This document shows, piece after piece, positions 24,026 to 32,992 of a DNA stretch of 64,000 nt. The notes beneath the pieces were generated by a model. It was not told the origin of the DNA and did not search any database. It was given only the letters and a program-made list of their open reading frames with translations. A program made the position numbers and the translations under genes. The stretch covers positions 1,488,001 through 1,552,000 of the forward strand of contig ML978127.1 of the NCBI GenBank assembly GCA_010015805.1, written 5' to 3'. This DNA is from Rhizodiscina lignyota. Taxonomy: Eukaryota. Position 1 is the stretch's first letter. Every line of letters begins with the position of its first letter.

Positions 24026-24536
24026 ATGCACTCCTTCACTCTTACCATCCTTGCGGCTCTCGCTGCTACTGTAGTAGCAGTTGATACGATAGAGCTCACG
24101 AGTCAGAAGGGAGTGTACGTTGTTCCTTGCTTTTGCGTTGAACATATCGAGAAACTTTCAGCCTGACAGCCTCTTAGTACGCAATTAATCGACGCCGCCC
24201 TTGTCCACAACGATCAGCCTATTATTACGTCCGGTACGCAGCAGAATTGCTTCAGCTGGTTAGGTCTTGGATTCGCCGCAGACGACGGTAACGCGTTAGA
24301 TTCGGCGCAGCCAGGTATGAACTCGATAGATCATAGGGGTTTTCAATTACATCTTTGAGACTAACATCATAACAGGCATTTGCTTTGTTCTTCACGAGGG
24401 AACTGATTGCACGGGAACTGCTAGCTCCGGAGAAGGAAACGGAAGCCCACTCGATGTTCTAACTCTTAACGGTGGCCAATTCGTATCTCATACTGGTTCA
24501 ATCAAGGTGTACAGGACAGTTCATGGGAAGTGCTAG
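24026..24536 (+). CDS. Small secreted protein (~128 aa, 4 Cys), 3 exons; effector-like
   Basis: Signal peptide MHSFTLTILAALAATVVA. Introns GTACGT..CTGAC..TAG and GTATGA..CTAAC..CAG keep the frame. Ends ...GICFVLHEGTDCTG...HTGSIKVYRTVHGKC*. TATTTAA ~100 bp upstream. Confidence 0.8.
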
Positions 24537-24848: not shown

Positions 24849-26264
24849 TTAAATTAGTACAACATGCTGAGGGGTCGTATCTGGCAGTAGAGCATCAATC
24901 TACCCACCTATGAGCCCATGTACATAGCATTCACCAATGAACTCGAAGCGGTGCGCTATAACCTCTCTTGGCATGTAGAGTACCTGTCCACCAGCTAAAG
25001 CTGCAACAATATGTCAGGAGGTACCCAGAACGTCCTAGCGCGTGAGCACGTGCATTCGTGTAATTATAGAATTTCTTCTTCACAGATTTCTCTCTTCAAT
25101 CAATCCACGAGATTCACAAATTCGTGCTTGCTACGTTCCTCTCCGATACAATATCTTGGGGTCTGGTTGCAGCTGGCGCAACTGCCATGTAACCCCTGTG
25201 AGTGGCTGCCAGTCTCCGTACAAAGCACGTCTGGGAAAATGTAATGTCCATCCCATACCTTATACCCCTATCTTCAGGCGTCATCGTGTCAAGACGTTGC
25301 GGAAAAAGACTCTAGTCAATATTGCCGCCGCGACTTACATCGTTCAAATCCACGCCCTTGTGTATGTCGGCCAGTACCGTGGTGCGGAAAGCTTCGTTGT
25401 ATTTTTCAGTGTCTTTGACCATCGACGACCATCTACGAACTCCCTCTCATCCTGGCTCCTCCCGTATACTCGAGAGCTTTGCTATCCCGTCTACAAGGAT
25501 TCCACTGAGATGCAGCTCATGCTTCACGATGTGTGCGTTGCAGCGTTGAAAGGAATCTTGCATCCGGATGCGTTACAAGCATCGGCGTCTGATGGCCTAA
25601 GGCATTTCCTAAGCGGCACAACTTCAAGACGCTCTCGCTAGTCAGGTACCAAGGAAGGCATCTTTTCCTCGGCACATGCACGTTGCATGTGGCGCGATTT
25701 ATCTACAGGATGGACGACGTAGCCAAGGACGTCCAGACTTCGAGCTCTTTCCAGGTATAGAGACACAACTTCTTCATATATGTCGGTAGTAGAGCGCGAG
25801 TAATCCGGTAACGATTCGTTTGGACCAACATCCGTCGCCAGATTACGAGGAGCAAATACCTTGTCCCGTGAATCGGTACATTTCGTGGTCCGAGTCGAGT
25901 GCAGCAGTTGTATGAGGCGAGAGGCGGCGGAAAGGAATATCTTGTCGAACCAAGCATCTCCACCACAGTAACGCGTTTCTGAGGGGCCTGTTGCCTCCTG
26001 TTGAATCCAAGTGCGTGTCCAGTAGCGCTAGTTGAACATCTCCATGATCCCGCACCAGCCCTTGTACGTGTCGCTGCCAGGGAATGGAAATAGAGACGGG
26101 TCATCTGCAGACAACTCGGTAGAGCCAGCATTCATGACTAATTGGTATTGTACTAAAAGAGCTTGGCCACTAATTTTCTCACCGCCGTACGTGTGGCCTC
26201 GCGACTTCCTACCTTCTAACGTCTGTCTCTCATACCTGTCACAGACAGACCATGCTACTGTCAC
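24849..26264 (-). pseudogene. het-6-like HET protein, C-terminal part, decayed
   Basis: WCGIMEMFN*RYWTRTWIQQE (end of HET domain); KCTDSRDKVFA...PDYSRSTTDIYEE; MPSLVPD* (LPSWVPDW-like); FEFIGECYVHGL...HVVLI* terminus; several stops and frameshifts. Confidence 0.8.
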
Positions 26265-26460: not shown

Positions 26461-27540
26461 TCAATCATTTGCGGAAGGCCTCTTATGGTCTGCAGGTACG
26501 ACGACTTTTTCTTCGTAGTCTGGTTGAACGGCAAGGTCGCCGCTACGCCGCCTTCGAACCCATTCGCGTATCTTTCCAAAATCGCGGCACACGTGCGTCA
26601 CATCAGAGTCGGCAAAGTTGCGGTCCTTGGACTTGTAGTATCTTGTGCCGTAGACTGTTATGTCGCCGGTGCACATTACGTATTGGCGTATCTCGTCTAT
26701 GCAGTGATCTGTCACAACGGTTAATGAAAGATCGACACTGATGAAACTCGGCTTACTGCGGTGTCTAATAGACTCGTCTGTCGTCTCTATCCCGTAGTGC
26801 TCAGCGTGGAAGTATTGGTAGATCCTCGCCTTCACATTGTCACAGCATTAAATCTCGGGCTTCATAGTGCGCACATGGATGCTCACCAGACAGTGAAGGG
26901 TATGGAACATGCTCAACCCGACATAGTATCCTCCTTTGGCGTTGTCCCAGTGTAATTCATAATCGGATGTCCACAACGCCTTAGCTTCCTCCTCTGAGAT
27001 GAGGAAATCCCTCCCTATTCCGTAAAACATAGTCAGATGGAGCACGACGACCACACGATAGGAGCAGTTACACACCTCCAACCAATGCTAGCCAAGCCGC
27101 ATCAATCTCTGGGCTTGGCTCGCCAGTGTACGTGACGTTGCCGGGATTTGGCGTGAAGAGAGTGCCGTCTTCGTAGACCGACGGGTCTCCAGTGAATTGG
27201 ACGCCAACAATATCAATATGCTTCCTTGAATCGGCTTTCAGCTCCATTAGTCTCGCTGTCCTTTCCCCTAGTTCCAATCTACCGAGTAACTCTTACGAAG
27301 TTCAGTGCTCCATCCGGCTTCGAACGATCCATATCCATTTTGCTCGCCGACATCTCGTAGGTTGGACCAAATTAAAAAACAAATAAGCAGAGTCGTGGTC
27401 GAGGCAAAGAAAATGGTCAAAATTTTCCAAATGGGCGAGGACTTTCGGAACGATCGTTGCTCAGAAGCCAATAATGTGCTTGTCTCGGAATCCGATTCTA
27501 ATGTTGAAGCAATCTTTTCAAAATTTTCACCGGCCATCAT
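26461..27540 (-). CDS. DUF3328/UstYa-like oxidase #1 (5 exons)
   Basis: N-terminal TM anchor; YTGEPSPEIDAAW; FHTLHCL; spliced HRNHCIDEIRQYVMCTGDIT; THVCRDFGKIREW. Both HxxHC motifs are intact. Confidence 0.9.
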
Positions 27541-27960
27541 AATCGCGAATGAGTACGAAAGTAGCGTTCTTCTCGTTAAGAGGTACTATGCACACCGCCA
27601 TGATCAGAGACCTAGTTGCAGATACCTTTTGAAGCAAAGGGCATTCGCGCGAGATGCAGGTAATCGCGCAGGATTCCGCATGGCAGTATCTCCGTGCTCG
27701 CTTAGATTAAATCTCACCTCATCATGAGTCCACATTCTTAATAGCTCTAATTAGCGTTGGCGGGAACGAGATTAAAGGTTCAAAGTGCTAATCTAGTAAA
27801 ACACTCGGAAGACGGTCGACCTTCGATTACATCAGTGCTCTTGAGAACGGAGATAGCACGGAAGAAGAGATATAGAACTTGTGGATCATTGTTCTTGCTT
27901 TAGCTAATTCTTGTACTGTCAAATCGACCGAGTCGACTTCTCATAGACTTGTGCGTCAAA

Positions 27961-28785
27961 ATGCGGGAGTGGAGAAATCAGGCTAGAATTCATCGGCGTT
28001 CTCTAAGGCTTGTCATTGCTCTGCTGCTTCTTCTGCTCAGTCTGGCTACCCTGTACGCCAGGACTGTTGTAATCCCTACTCAGCGCCAGTGCCAGAACCG
28101 CATGTTCCTATATTCTCCTGCTTCAGATCATGTTCATTACCAGTGGACGAATTTCAAAAAGTTTTACTATCCGCCATCCGAGCTCGTTGGTCCTCCTACA
28201 CCTGAGCGGGAGCAGCTCTGGGACGAATATGTTCCAAGTATGTCTATGTTCTCGCCAATATATTAGAATTGTAGAACTGACGAAGATTGCAGACTCTATC
28301 GTATCGGTTCCATACGATCGAATCAGTGAACTAGGCCATGTCAATAACGAAAATTGGTGGGCTGTCGCCCCAGAAGCAGGAGGAGGCGTCGCGGCTGTGC
28401 TGGCTGTCGACTACCAGCTGAACTGCCTGGTAAGACCAGATCGAGAACTTATGTTGTTGTGCGTAGAATTAATCTGCGGTAGTCACTCCTCCACAGATAC
28501 CTATACAAGTCAGCGTACAAGCACATGTTCAACCATAGTCAAGTCTCTGAGCACCGGCTCAAGGCTCAGAAAAACCTCTGTTTGGAGGTCCTGCGACAGG
28601 AGTTGACATGCTACGCTGATCCCACATTGTATCTCAACTGGAGGAACCCGAAGTCTCAGAAGAATGCTGCGGCTGATCTTGGATCGTGGCACAAGTGCAG
28701 AGACTATGATGCAATAAGGGATTGGGCGTGGTCACACAGGATCTACAATTTGCATGTATCAAATGTATTAGACCTTACAGTGTGA
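27961..28785 (+). CDS. DUF3328/UstYa-like protein #2 with degenerate HxxHC motifs (3 exons)
   Basis: TM anchor; YSPA; GPPTPEREQLWD; VDYQLNCL; QKNLCLEVLRQELTCYADPT; HKCRDYDAIRDW. The frame is intact across GTATGT/CAG and GTAAGA/TAG introns. Confidence 0.85.
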
Positions 28786-28828: not shown

Positions 28829-29799
28829 TCATTCTGCTGTTCCCGCGAAGTGTACAGGCAAGGTATTTTCCCTCCCATATCTCATGATATTGTCCCAGTT
28901 ACGACACTTTGCACTTTTGTTCAAGTTTAGTCTCATGTGATGCATGTCCGAATGTAGATCCCGCTCGATGAGATATGGGGTCACATCAGCGTTGCAGTGT
29001 ATAATGCTCCGTATGTTCTCAATACAGTGCTCGACATGTTCAAAGAGGACGTCCGGGGCCTGGTACCAAAACCTCCGGTCACTGAAATCGTAAGAGTCCT
29101 TGAACGTATACTGGCGGAGGAGAGACTATGTAAAAGTTTAGCATTATGATCTTGTAACCACTTGGCTTGACTTACCAAGCAATGGAGACGATGGTAGCCC
29201 TCATACAGAGCTCCTATCTTGCCTCCGTATCGTGGTTTGTCGCTGTCAAGATGCACCCACTGCACTTCGTTCGACTTGTTGAGGAGGTTAACTTTGTCAT
29301 CATCGATGCCTATGGCGCCATCTGTCTCAGGTCAGGAACAGCCCCTCATTGGATGGTGCGAATAAATGAATACAGTTCCAAAGTTCGTCCCATGCAGCCT
29401 CCACCTCGTCTGATGGAGGAGACGTATAGACGCTCTGGACTGACGGGTCGAGACTCGTCCATTCGTACTTGAAAGTTTCTATCATTGGTGCTGTTACGTA
29501 TCGGGTAAGCTGGAAATTCTGGGGATGCTGTAATGTTGAGACGGCGACTTACACCAATGGAACATCCTCGCGGTACACTTCTGATCAAGGTCGCCAGGAA
29601 GAAAGGAAAGGATGAATATGCATAGTGCTGCGACAATAAAAGCAGCTGGAGACCATGTGAAAATCATATCCAATGCATCCCGTGAATAAATTGACATGAA
29701 GGATAGGCTTTCTTGAATTCCCAAACCATGAGAGTCGAGTAGCGCCTTCTCGGAGTCGTCCGCTTCAGAGGTACTTCGTAAACGAAGATAGGGAGTCAT
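28829..29799 (-). CDS. DUF3328/UstYa-like oxidase #3 (4 exons)
   Basis: TM anchor; WSPM; SPPSDEVEAAWDELW; YHRLHCL; HVEHCIENIRSIIHCNADVTP; KCRNWDNI. Confidence 0.9.
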
Positions 29800-30377
29800 T
29801 ATGGTAGCTGCTATGTCTGTGTCTTTCGGGCTCGATAGATGACAGCGTTTTATCAAAATTCTATAGCCTATCCTCGGCGCAGTCGCTGTATACGCTAGAA
29901 ACGTCAAAAGTTAACTTGTCGTTTCAGTCTCGATGGAACCTTATCTCAAAAGAATACCTGCCCGTGCGTGATTGCTGAAGGTGTCCTATTTTATTATCAA
30001 TATCCCGATTTCCGCTAATCTCATACCTAGAGGCGTGATGACATGAGATTGATTTCCGTCGATTTCCGGAAACTCTCCCAGAACACTTTTGGTCAAGCAT
30101 TGACTCGCGCGAGAGCATCTAAAACGAGCTAAACAACTTGGTTTCCTGTCAGGATGCCCATCCTGGTACGTGAGTACGTGCATTCGAATATTATAGCCTT
30201 CCTCTCCCTCAGTGATTTCACTTTCTTGCAGTCAATCCACGATATTTGCTACTTCGTGAATCGTGCTCGCTACGTGCTCCGATATTTCCCCCTATAAGAG
30301 TTTCAATATCCAGCTGCTCTTGTCTCTACATTATACGAATCGATTATTCCGCAAGCACATCACATCCACATCTCAAG

Positions 30378-30598
30378 ATGAAGGCGTACATCACTATTAT
30401 CATTGCAGCCTTTTGCTCCATGATCGCTGCAGCGCCGGTCAGCCAGGGTACACTTCGTCTAATCTCTACAATGTAACAATTGAGCGAATACTAACCTTTA
30501 TACGAGTAGTCTCTTCCGCCGGTACTTCGGTAGCCAGTGAAAATCTTGCCATTCGCGAGGTTGTTGAAGAATACGATGGGGATGCGGAGAGCTGGTGA
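30378..30598 (+). CDS. Putative RiPP precursor peptide, 52 aa, 2 exons (30378-30447, 30510-30598)
   Basis: Spliced: MKAYITIIIAAFCSMIAAAPVSQVSSAGTSVASENLAIREVVEEYDGDAESW*. Signal peptide ends AAA-P; LxxR site; acidic Tyr/Trp C-terminal segment; CTAAC branch point; divergent from DUF3328 #3. Confidence 0.75.
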
Positions 30599-31003
30599 AG
30601 AGGAATAATAGTGACAAATACTCTTCGGAGAGAATCGTGTCACTTGAGGAACCCGTCAGAACAACTGAATCTTATGTACTAGTTCATTAGTTTGGCGAAT
30701 TCGGTGCCTCGTGTGAGAATGTGAGAGGTCTACATACTCCGTGTCTGTCTTTGTGTTGATTGCCGACGTGATCTTGAAGAAAGCGCGCTCAACGTTCAAG
30801 TACAATCGATTAAGGAAGGAGAGTCGCCAGAGGGTGGCAGAAAGGCTAATATGCTGATAGAATCAACGCGCTAACTGGTGAAATGCGAACGAACGAATTT
30901 GCCGGGTCCAACTAGTCAGATGCGTATAATTAGGCACCTCAAGAAATTGAGGTACAGGCCGCAGGAATCCGAGGTGTGTCATTATGGTTCGATGGGAATA
31001 CAT

Positions 31004-31294
31004 ACAGACAGCATCGACGTACAAGCGGTATTTAGAGCTGCGTAAGTGTCTAAACATATGGCGTAGCGCGTCGTGTAGATTCTCTTGGACTGAAAAGACT
31101 TCTCCGTTAAGTTTAATGTTGTATTTCGTATCAAGAGGACGGCCTCTCCGGTATGGTGCTGGGCCCCATGTGTAAGAAAGCGCAACGTACGTTGGCGCTT
31201 CATTGATCTCATGTGTCTCGAGGGCGAAAGCAAAGTCATCACCCTCTAAAGGACACAAAAGTCGAAACCCCCTCTGCATCAGAGCCTTGTACAT
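31004..31294 (-). pseudogene. het-6-like HET protein, N-terminal exon only
   Basis: MYKAL...FRLL...APTYVALSYTWG...VQENLHDALRH...LYVDAVC, then a GTATGT donor. No recognisable INQ/QV..M..IY continuation follows. Confidence 0.75.
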
Positions 31295-31807
31295 GTTGAA
31301 GAGTAAACAGAGAAGCTTCGAATACCGTCGCTACAAACTTCAAACCTCAAGGCTGCAACTCACGTGGCGACTCTTGGTACCAGGTACGATATTTTGGCCG
31401 CACGTGTCCCAGGAGCAGACGCCAGCTGGCAATGGCGGCATTGTTGGCAGGGAAAGGAACGACTCATGATAGATTTCACATAGAGAGATACATCAAAAGC
31501 CATTGAGGCGACGGAAGTGTAGAACTGCCATTAAGATAGGAGTATTGAGACACGTCGTCTGACGAGGAACACGTTAAGTTGATCACTTTCAAAGTACCCT
31601 GTGGCGGTGCAAGCCCCTGAGCTAGCCCCACGCCCAGTCTTGGACTCTTGGAAAGCCACCCCTGGACGCCTTCCGTCATAAGGCGCCCGCCGTAATCCTA
31701 CCACCTACATACCTGCTAAAACTCCACGCGCTACTGTCAAGTTCCGAATCCAGTGGAAAACAGTCAATAAACTCCTCTCATGTGCTAGAGCCCTACGGCA
31801 ATTGCGG

Positions 31808-32992
31808 ATGTTTCGACCGTCTCACCACGCAAACGACTCGCGAACCGCATTCAGGAACCCATGGCCGTCAGCGCAGCCGCCAACATGGGCAGATTTTACC
31901 TCCATGTCCCTCCCGTTCAGCTGGTATCCGAAAGACTCGCCAGTTGAACGGCCTCCTATCAAAGTCGTCGCTCCAGACTGGGGCGCCTCCAAACTTAAGA
32001 ACCAGAGCACCACGGACTACGTTGTCGGCACATGGCTCGGCCACGCCAGCGTTCTGGTGGAATTCAAGCCTCTGTCATCTACAGTCAAGAACAAAAGCCT
32101 CTACGCTTTGTTCGACCCCATGTTCTCTATGCGCGCTGGGCCAACACAGTATACTGGCCCGTCGCGATTCAACAAACCGCCGTGCAGCATCTCTGACCTT
32201 CCCGGATGTGACGTGGTATGCATATCACACAGCCACTTTGACCATCTGGACACTTCGACGGTGCTGCAAATAATCCGGTATTTCCCATCCGCGAAATGGT
32301 TTGTGCCTCTGGGGCTCCAGGAGTGGTTTGTCACGACCGGTGTCAAGGCAGAAAACGTCAAAGCGATGGACTGGTGGGACACCTGGGATGGATTTACCTC
32401 GAAGAAACTGATCGGCAAAGCCTCATCTTCGTTCAGGATTTCCTGCGTTCCGGCGCAACATAATTCTGGACGGGGAGCATTTGACCAGGGGAGCACGCTG
32501 TGGTGTGGATGGGTTATTGAACGGTTCGTCGAAGACGCCGAGGGCAGGACCAGACATGGCTCAATCTACCATGCTGGAGATACTGGATACCGGCGTTCAG
32601 CGGCATCCAAGGACGTCTGCCCCGCCTTCAAAGAGATTGGCAGCAAGTTCAATGGCTTCGATCTATCGTTTATTCCGATATGGCGAGGCGGCAGTCTCGG
32701 CTTCATCTCCTACATCGGCCTCCGTCTAAACCATCACGAGATCCCCGCACAATTCCATTGCTCTCCGGCAGACGCTGTCTTGATCCACAAAGATACAAAG
32801 TCACGCAATACGATCGCTATACATTTCGGCACTTTCGTTGGCTCGCAAAACGAATCGAACGAGGCGTTGAAGGAGTTTTATACGGCAATGAAAGATGAGG
32901 ACGTACAGACTCTAGATAGTCAAGGCCCCAATCCGAACGGTCGGGCAGGAGCTGTTGATATTGGTGAGAGCCTTCCCATCGAAGTAGACTGA
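31808..32992 (+). CDS. NAPE-PLD/Fmp30-like metallo-beta-lactamase-fold hydrolase
   Basis: FRNPW; TWLGHAS; FDPMFS; ISHSHFDHLD; PAQHNSGR; YHAGDTGY; IHFGTF. Confidence 0.9.
   Translation: MFRPSHHANDSRTAFRNPWPSAQPPTWADFTSMSLPFSWYPKDSPVERPPIKVVAPDWGASKLKNQSTTDYVVGTWLGHASVLVEFKPLSSTVKNKSLYALFDPMFSMRAGPTQYTGPSRFNKPPCSISDLPGCDVVCISHSHFDHLDTSTVLQIIRYFPSAKWFVPLGLQEWFVTTGVKAENVKAMDWWDTWDGFTSKKLIGKASSSFRISCVPAQHNSGRGAFDQGSTLWCGWVIERFVEDAEGRTRHGSIYHAGDTGYRRSAASKDVCPAFKEIGSKFNGFDLSFIPIWRGGSLGFISYIGLRLNHHEIPAQFHCSPADAVLIHKDTKSRNTIAIHFGTFVGSQNESNEALKEFYTAMKDEDVQTLDSQGPNPNGRAGAVDIGESLPIEVD

Follow-up and report, generated by a model that had tools for sequence, protein, structure and literature searches.

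What can a DUF3328 (UstYa) protein still do once every histidine (His) expected to bind copper has been replaced? This question is raised by NA57DRAFT_77035, a gene in a 64,000-nt stretch of Rhizodiscina lignyota contig ML978127.1 (assembly GCA_010015805.1, positions 1,488,001 to 1,552,000; hereafter the window, in whose coordinates all positions are given), where it is flanked on both sides by His-bearing UstYa genes (neighbours 1 and 3, Table 1). R. lignyota is a Dothideomycete by database taxonomy. A first-pass annotation of the window had read the gene as a retained, non-catalytic partner, such as a heterodimer subunit, rather than a decaying copy. Based on the sequence comparisons described here, the gene is a member of an old, widespread His-less UstYa lineage, in that it groups with other His-depleted proteins and keeps all four scaffold cysteines (Cys).

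Proof that DUF3328/UstYa proteins act as dimers and carry a binuclear copper site dates only from 2025. According to PMC12435403, the copper centre is formed by the HxxHC(x)nHxxHC motif, a motif pair carried by “most” members of the family. In the membrane-associated homodimer CctR, the cyclochlorotine hydroxylase of Talaromyces islandicus, each monomer holds two Cu, the four His of one monomer lie in a plane with two Cys beneath them, mutants with His or Cys changed to Ala are inactive, and dimerization is required, while ApnU and AprY need copper, O2, and disulfide-mediated dimerization (PMC12435403). These accounts agree with the background given in the first-pass annotation, that HxxHC histidines bind copper and that ApnU is a disulfide-linked dimer. 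CctR, ApnU, and AprY resemble the window protein in their Pfam UstYa assignment, N-terminal transmembrane (TM) anchor and lumenal domain, two helices with xxxxC motifs, and LRxxxxC and HxCR cysteines, and the complex model described below predicts for the window protein, too, a dimer held by the TM helix and a four-helix bundle; they differ from it in that the window protein lacks all four copper-ligand His.

The gene itself is intact. Its 717-nt coding sequence runs without frameshift or internal stop across two GT..AG introns, and the 238-aa translation matches database protein P0001 ([quoted passage not shown]) letter for letter. The Pfam UstYa profile (PF11807) scores 38.8 bits on exon 1 and 52.7 bits on exon 3 (cut-off 25), with no Pfam UstYa match for exon 2 by itself, and a precomputed PF11807 assignment also exists for P0001. 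The anchor (LRLVIALLLLLLSLATLYA) has a mean Kyte–Doolittle hydropathy of 2.36 and a basic N-flank and falls within a helix (residues 2–35) of the AlphaFold2 monomer model, whose mean predicted local distance difference test score (pLDDT) is only 69.5 and for which Foldseek finds no PDB match at E <= 0.001; a single N-terminal TM anchor with a non-cytoplasmic C-terminal domain (type-II, lumen-facing) is thereby predicted. Five cysteines are present: C44, C137, C171, C181 (VLRQELTC), and C210 (HKCRDY). Translation, hydropathy, and the match to P0001 thus bear out the first-pass description of an intact open reading frame (ORF), splice sites, TM anchor, and LRQxLxC/CRDY cysteines, as well as of motifs reading YQLNC and QKNLC against HTLHC/HRNHC and HRLHC/HVEHC in the two neighbours, so that none of the four HxxHC His and both motif Cys are present. 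Because CctR mutants with His changed to Ala are inactive in the published account, CctR-type chemistry is not expected of the window protein, and by this analogy it very probably lacks a dicopper site.

To place the His-less protein among its relatives, a phmmer search of 1.84 billion representatives was performed, which returned 922 proteins at E <= 1e-3, the best non-self match being only 41% identical. Motifs were then tallied in a census of 143 rows of 150–350 aa (142 from the best 150 of the 922 matches, plus neighbour 1): all four His were found in 112 rows, one to three in 18 (some through gaps or truncation), and none in 13, which makes the His-less state unusual but not unique. About 20 distant His-lacking relatives, all at most 41% identical to the window protein, were recovered over five classes of Pezizomycotina. 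Neither exon 3 nor neighbour 3 retrieved anything beyond its own protein from a word-indexed protein search, and a metagenome scan with P0090 yielded two loci, both false positives by tblastn (bacterial-looking, no UstYa).

In a FastTree phylogeny of all 143 rows, the His-depleted rows fall into an 8-row clade (support 96) and an 11-row clade (98). A more careful IQ-TREE analysis (LG+C20) was run on 56 rows with the four His columns stripped, comprising 16 full-length His-depleted rows, the CctO pair (P0025/P0069), and 38 other His-bearing rows that include both neighbours and the Aspergillus partner considered below; fragmentary rows P0048, P0130, and P0099 were excluded. Here the window protein pairs with Agyrium rufum P0002 (YQTNC/QVHQC; 98/96) inside a 6-row His-depleted clade A (94/77), which is adjoined by a 10-row His-depleted clade B (95/94). 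Clades A and B form a group at 72/69 together with a long-branch four-His row, P0050, that sits beside clade A at 81/40, whereas a quick IQ-TREE search unites all 16 His-depleted rows (Shimodaira–Hasegawa-like approximate likelihood ratio 81); the sequence trees are thus divided between one loss, as when the quick tree joins the clades, and two, as when the careful tree interposes P0050. On the careful tree, the label “0–1 His” needs 3 changes, of which one is the separate CctO pair; shuffled labels need 14.7 on average, and none of 500 shuffles came out as low. Neighbours 1 and 3 are placed outside both His-less clades, so the window gene did not arise by recent duplication within the locus.

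Besides the window protein, clade A holds sequences from Agyrium rufum (Lecanoromycetes), Echria macrotheca (Sordariomycetes), and Xylogone sp. (Leotiomycetes), while clade B holds eight Aspergillus species (transmontanensis, parasiticus, arachidicola, novoparasiticus, sergii, minisclerotigenes, bertholletiae, and heteromorphus) along with Xylaria, Glarea lozoyensis, Podospora australis, and Diaporthe amygdali; Leptodontidium is represented by the fragmentary row P0099, positioned in FastTree only. The state that the first-pass annotation had noted in a single gene is conserved in relatives across both clades, with named members in Dothideomycetes, Lecanoromycetes, Sordariomycetes, Leotiomycetes, and Eurotiomycetes. 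Searching with a profile of the His-less alignment adds Aspergillus niger, Lasiosphaeris hirsuta, Thermothielavioides terrestris, and three further records, all six with VQLGC or VDLGC followed by RA[YH]QC or RTYQC; two other matches of that search carry intact motifs. Because Y133, N136, and Q167 are common to the window protein and its nearest relative, that from A. rufum in another class, the His replacements are old.

Comparison of alignment columns between the 16 His-depleted and 35 four-His rows (conserved being defined as at least 80% in the four-His rows) showed no conserved residue to be lost other than the four His; the comparison also flagged two columns of the C-terminal tail, which in the four-His rows consist mostly of gaps. 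Retained positions comprise P53, W87, L106, C137, L138, R142, C171, L175, R176, C181, D184, C210, R211, and W219, and nine residues (C137, C171, L175, R176, C181, D184, H208, C210, and W219) are invariant over 19 His-less sequences. C181 and C210 in particular are found in 19/19 His-less and 97–100% of the 35 four-His sequences. C181 appears to match the type of cysteine that forms inter-monomer disulfides in CctR, C181/C210 being set against CctR C190/C213 by motif position with CctR itself unaligned. The residues standing in for His vary (V/L/Y/H/R/A at 133, N/H/G/A/E/Q at 136, R/Q/L/D at 167, and Q/L/R/E/G/K at 170), and no new conserved constellation is visible at the former copper site in these rows; conservation specific to the His-less clade is confined to one column, W62, and neighbour 3 has W there too.

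Where closely related species could be compared, in 10 species pairs of Aspergillus section Flavi, protein identity is 96.5% (2229/2310) for the His-less orthologues and 94.7% (1548/1635) for the adjacent His-bearing gene; some of the gene models compared are truncated, and the figures are not ratios of nonsynonymous to synonymous substitution. These identities argue against relaxed constraint. With an intact ORF and splice sites, a state shared with four other classes, losses confined to the four His, and Aspergillus orthologues that evolve no faster, the gene is very probably retained under selection, as the first-pass annotation had held.

A His-bearing UstYa gene adjoins the His-less gene in all three lineages with visible neighbours (the window, Aspergillus, and Diaporthe amygdali). 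In Aspergillus, the His-less protein shares its 90% cluster with a different, His-bearing UstYa (HQAHC/HLEHC) by way of a fused annotation, P0158 (428 aa), and in five species the His-less and His-bearing proteins bear consecutive accession numbers. For D. amygdali the evidence is likewise a fusion: the alternative gene model P0166 (341 aa) joins one domain with VQLGC/QADLC to another with HQLHC/HAAHC. From A. oryzae and A. flavus, the 90% cluster seen in Aspergillus contains the His-bearing partner (P0154, P0160) and no His-less protein, an observation of cluster membership only and not proof of gene absence. Other fused models (P0008, 409 aa; P0135, 344 aa; P0037, 497 aa) each join a pair of His-bearing UstYa domains that differ in subtype, one short (“CxADxTLE”) and one long (“SPA..Y.W”), which suggests that adjacent pairs of those two subtypes are common in fungi and bears on the base rate of adjacency. 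Seven stretches of P0065 (2448 aa) match the query, and this record may be a gene model that runs on across several clustered UstYa genes; a simple motif expression found nothing in it.

We further modelled the His-less protein in complex with neighbour 3 (aa 40–268), using three runs and three controls. The interaction prediction score from aligned errors (ipSAE) was 0.90 in 3/3 runs against 0.01 for the best control, with 345–362 contacts, a partner pLDDT of 85, and agreement between runs in at least 92% of contacts; for comparison, 51 of 78 solved complexes attain the pass mark, as do 2 of 108 mismatched pairs. The predicted interface involves the TM helix and the two motif helices of each chain, as well as C214 of neighbour 3 against C210, with strand pairing between residues 217–223 of neighbour 3 and 126–131 of the His-less protein, and matches the TM helix, four-helix coiled coil, and C190–C213 disulfides described for the CctR homodimer. 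Because no DUF3328 structure is found in the PDB, either by sequence search or by Foldseek at E <= 0.001, the pass does not reproduce a solved complex. The model, of a kind that the first-pass annotation had proposed for both neighbours and the peptide, does not tell binding preference among family members: the His-less protein still looks dimer-competent, and a preference for neighbour 3 is not implied. C137 and C171 fall outside the predicted interface residues; being invariant without the His and absent from the predicted interface, the motif cysteines may be structural in the whole family.

The explanation that we tentatively favour is that the window gene encodes a retained, copper-site-less accessory subunit working with its catalytic neighbours; a heterodimer partnership proper is put forward with still more reserve. 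In such an arrangement, a type-II membrane-anchored, lumen-facing protein would retain the fold, the motif cysteines, and the LRxxxxC/HxCR cysteines; judging from CctR mutagenesis it could form no binuclear copper site, and so would not itself be a copper oxidase. It would most likely still form the disulfide-linked dimer of the family and would cooperate with the His-bearing paralogues encoded on either side, most probably as a heterodimer with one active site rather than two, in which the His-less subunit gives a scaffold or a substrate-binding surface. We infer each of these elements: no copper binding, dimerization, heterodimer over homodimer, and the auxiliary role. Pseudoenzyme partners of active paralogues, in which catalytic ligands are selectively lost and the scaffold is kept, are a general concept, and the window gene resembles them in losing ligands with its scaffold retained and in its genomic pairing with active paralogues. 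In the searchable literature, which extends neither to the primary papers on ApnU and AprY nor to supplements that may show His-less members (e.g., Fig. S7 of PMC12435403), no description of a fully His-less lineage or of a DUF3328 heterodimer was found, nor any biochemical evidence of such a pseudoenzyme partner for a DUF3328 member.

The partner role proposed in the first-pass annotation is plausible, with adjacency and the model pass on its side, and several considerations weigh against it. Close relatives of a true partner usually pass such modelling, the identity of the binding family member cannot be read from a pass, and since the family forms homodimers, a His-less homodimer is just as compatible. 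The three-lineage sample is biased, two of the lineages being visible only through fused gene models that favour adjacency, and UstYa genes are often clustered anyway. The His-bearing partners also differ between loci: Aspergillus P0153 is very divergent (branch 4.2–4.6) and 28% identical to the Diaporthe partner (the C-terminal domain of P0166), neither resembles neighbours 1 or 3, and there is consequently no conserved co-evolving pair. The invariant C137 and C171, lying away from the predicted interface, would serve something other than dimer contact, and the nearest relative of the window gene is just 41% identical. Finally, CctO is a His-depleted DUF3328 protein with an assigned enzymatic role, and by analogy loss of His need not mean that catalysis is lost.

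This last point leads to the main rival, which we consider unlikely though worth serious weight: a repurposed stand-alone enzyme that would have given up copper–oxygen chemistry and, in the manner proposed for CctO, would carry out a non-redox or thiol-based reaction (acyl shift, isomerization, or disulfide chemistry) on the same pathway intermediate, employing the retained pair C137/C171 or other residues. P0025, a genetically characterised protein annotated as “Transacylase cctO” of T. islandicus, has the depleted motifs HQLGC/HVDQC and resembles the window protein in that its HxxHC motifs are degraded with cysteines kept, that it shares a cluster with His-bearing DUF3328 genes (CctP2, CctR), and that, going by its name only, it is required for a non-oxidative step. 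The invariance of C137 and C171 in 19/19 His-less sequences, outside the predicted dimer interface, is consistent with a catalytic pair, and deep conservation fits any retained function. Set against this, CctO keeps the first His of each motif (2/4 His, where the window protein has none), and P0025 and P0069 form a separate lineage (100/100) away from the His-less clades; CctO belongs to a nonribosomal peptide synthetase (NRPS) pathway, whereas no NRPS was found among the window ORFs scanned with Pfam (583 to 41294, the 41.3–64 kb part lying outside the scan). The stand-ins for His vary, W62, the only clade-specific column, occurs in neighbour 3 as well, and no new catalytic constellation emerges. 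The CctO function itself is known here only from its UniProt name and from the title of the supporting paper, reportedly that of Jiang et al. 2021 (Org Lett 23:2616).

A non-catalytic homodimer with an independent role, in which the protein would act as a lumenal binding protein (for example to carry a substrate or product, to give self-protection, or to handle Cu(I) via its Cys pair), appears distinctly improbable. The homodimer is the default state of the family in the published account (PMC12435403), all dimer-forming features are retained, and the partners at different loci are not orthologous, all of which suit this alternative; the adjacency of a His-bearing UstYa in each of the three visible loci, biased as that sample is, speaks for an association instead, and nothing positive was found towards a carrier or metal-handling role. 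A recently inactivated, decaying duplicate of a neighbour is essentially excluded, since although each of the four replacement codons (TAC, AAC, CAG, CTC) is one base from a His codon, there is no frameshift or stop, the splice sites are intact, three of the four replacement residues recur in the A. rufum protein of another class, the tree places the gene among His-less proteins and away from neighbours 1 and 3, and every other family-conserved column is retained.

If the accessory-subunit explanation were generalized, Pezizomycotina would carry ancient copper-site-less DUF3328 “pseudo-oxidases” as obligate, disulfide-linked heterodimer partners of catalytic DUF3328 proteins, giving one-site asymmetric dimers in which the dead subunit sets substrate recognition or regioselectivity, a proposition that we regard as doubtful. 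As a corollary, because they are invariant without the His, the motif cysteines would be a structural staple rather than copper ligands throughout the family, and the His-less lineage offers a natural experiment on their role. [quoted passage not shown] Were the heterodimer true, pathway reconstitution and enzyme engineering in the family would need the dead partner.

Table 1 Positions of the His-less gene, its protein features, and the two neighbouring UstYa genes in the window
Feature	Position	Strand	Details
His-less UstYa/DUF3328 gene NA57DRAFT_77035	27961..28785	+	3 exons, 238 aa
Exon 1	27961..28237	+	aa 1-92 plus 1 nt; holds signal-anchor TM helix and C44; Pfam UstYa E 1.2e-9
TM helix, aa 15-33	28003-28059	+	within exon 1
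Intron 1	28238..28292	+	55 nt, GTATGT..CAG, phase 1; position matched by phase-1 intron in both neighbours
Exon 2	28293..28429	+	terminates in YQLNCL
Degenerate motif 1, YQLNC	28412..28426	+	Y133, N136 in place of His; C137 retained
Intron 2	28430..28482	+	53 nt, GTAAGA..TAG, phase 0 right after “CL”; common to both neighbours
Exon 3, including stop codon	28483..28785	+	Pfam UstYa E 6.7e-14
Degenerate motif 2, QKNLC	28567..28581	+	Q167, L170 in place of His; C171 retained
LRQELTC (L175, R176, C181)	28591..28611	+	unchanged in 19/19 His-less sequences
KCRDY (C210, R211)	28693..28707	+	C210 predicted to contact neighbour-3 C214 in complex model
Neighbour 1, His-bearing UstYa, HTLHC/HRNHC	26461..27540	-	5 exons, 283 aa; gene model built in this analysis
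Neighbour 3, His-bearing UstYa, HRLHC/HVEHC	28829..29799	-	4 exons, 268 aa; P0112 = NA57DRAFT_77036
Neighbour 3 exons	29799-29553, 29490-29374, 29321-29176, 29125-28829	-	

Of the three UstYa genes (Table 1), neighbour 1 is divergent from the His-less gene with an ATG-to-ATG gap of 420 nt and neighbour 3 convergent with it with a stop-to-stop gap of 43 nt. All three share a phase-0 intron right behind the “C-L” of motif 1 and a phase-1 intron after the conserved W-x-x-L/Y region, and because these two positions and phases coincide, the genes are paralogues of common descent; the second HxxHC motif of neighbour 1 is interrupted by an intron. The two divergent intergenic regions, 27541–27960 and 29800–30378, share two 10-mers against a shuffle mean of 0.4 and maximum of 4, which is not significant as evidence of common promoter motifs.

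Among the scanned ORFs, other genes recognized by Pfam are an amino-acid permease (20.5–22.2 kb), a HET-domain fragment (30863–31330, minus strand), a gene with a metallo-beta-lactamase fold (31682–32992, plus strand), and ordinary housekeeping genes, with no tailoring enzymes beyond the UstYa genes; 22 smaller ORFs at 22–26.7 and 30–31.5 kb gave no Pfam match. The locus is like the UstYa/UstYb clusters of dikaritin RiPPs in having several clustered UstYa genes with small secreted-peptide genes nearby, and differs from them in that no tandem repeat of the Kex2-precursor type was found between 22 and 31 kb and no tyrosinase, methyltransferase, or transporter was detected by Pfam beside the three genes.

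The HET-domain ORF covers only profile positions 1–57 of 146 and then ends, and about 4.8 kb further along the same strand another ORF (25638–26131, minus strand) carries RYWTRTWIQQE, which we take to resemble the end of HET domains. Between the two pieces lie the three UstYa genes and a small peptide gene, which may be a cassette inserted into a HET gene; the pieces at 25.6–26.1 kb gave no HET match by Pfam even at E up to 10, which leaves this idea without support for the second piece.

Two small genes for secreted products were also seen. One (24027–24536, plus strand) apparently has two introns and encodes a protein with the signal peptide MHSFTLTILAALAATVVA and several Cys, with no repeats or KR sites by reading and no Pfam match. 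The other, the small peptide gene mentioned above (30379–30598, plus strand), is divergent from neighbour 3 and has one intron (about 30448–30508); its peptide of ~52 aa likewise has no repeats, no KR sites by reading, and no Pfam match, and with its signal peptide and an end reading AIREVVEEYDGDAESW it could be a candidate substrate of the cluster.
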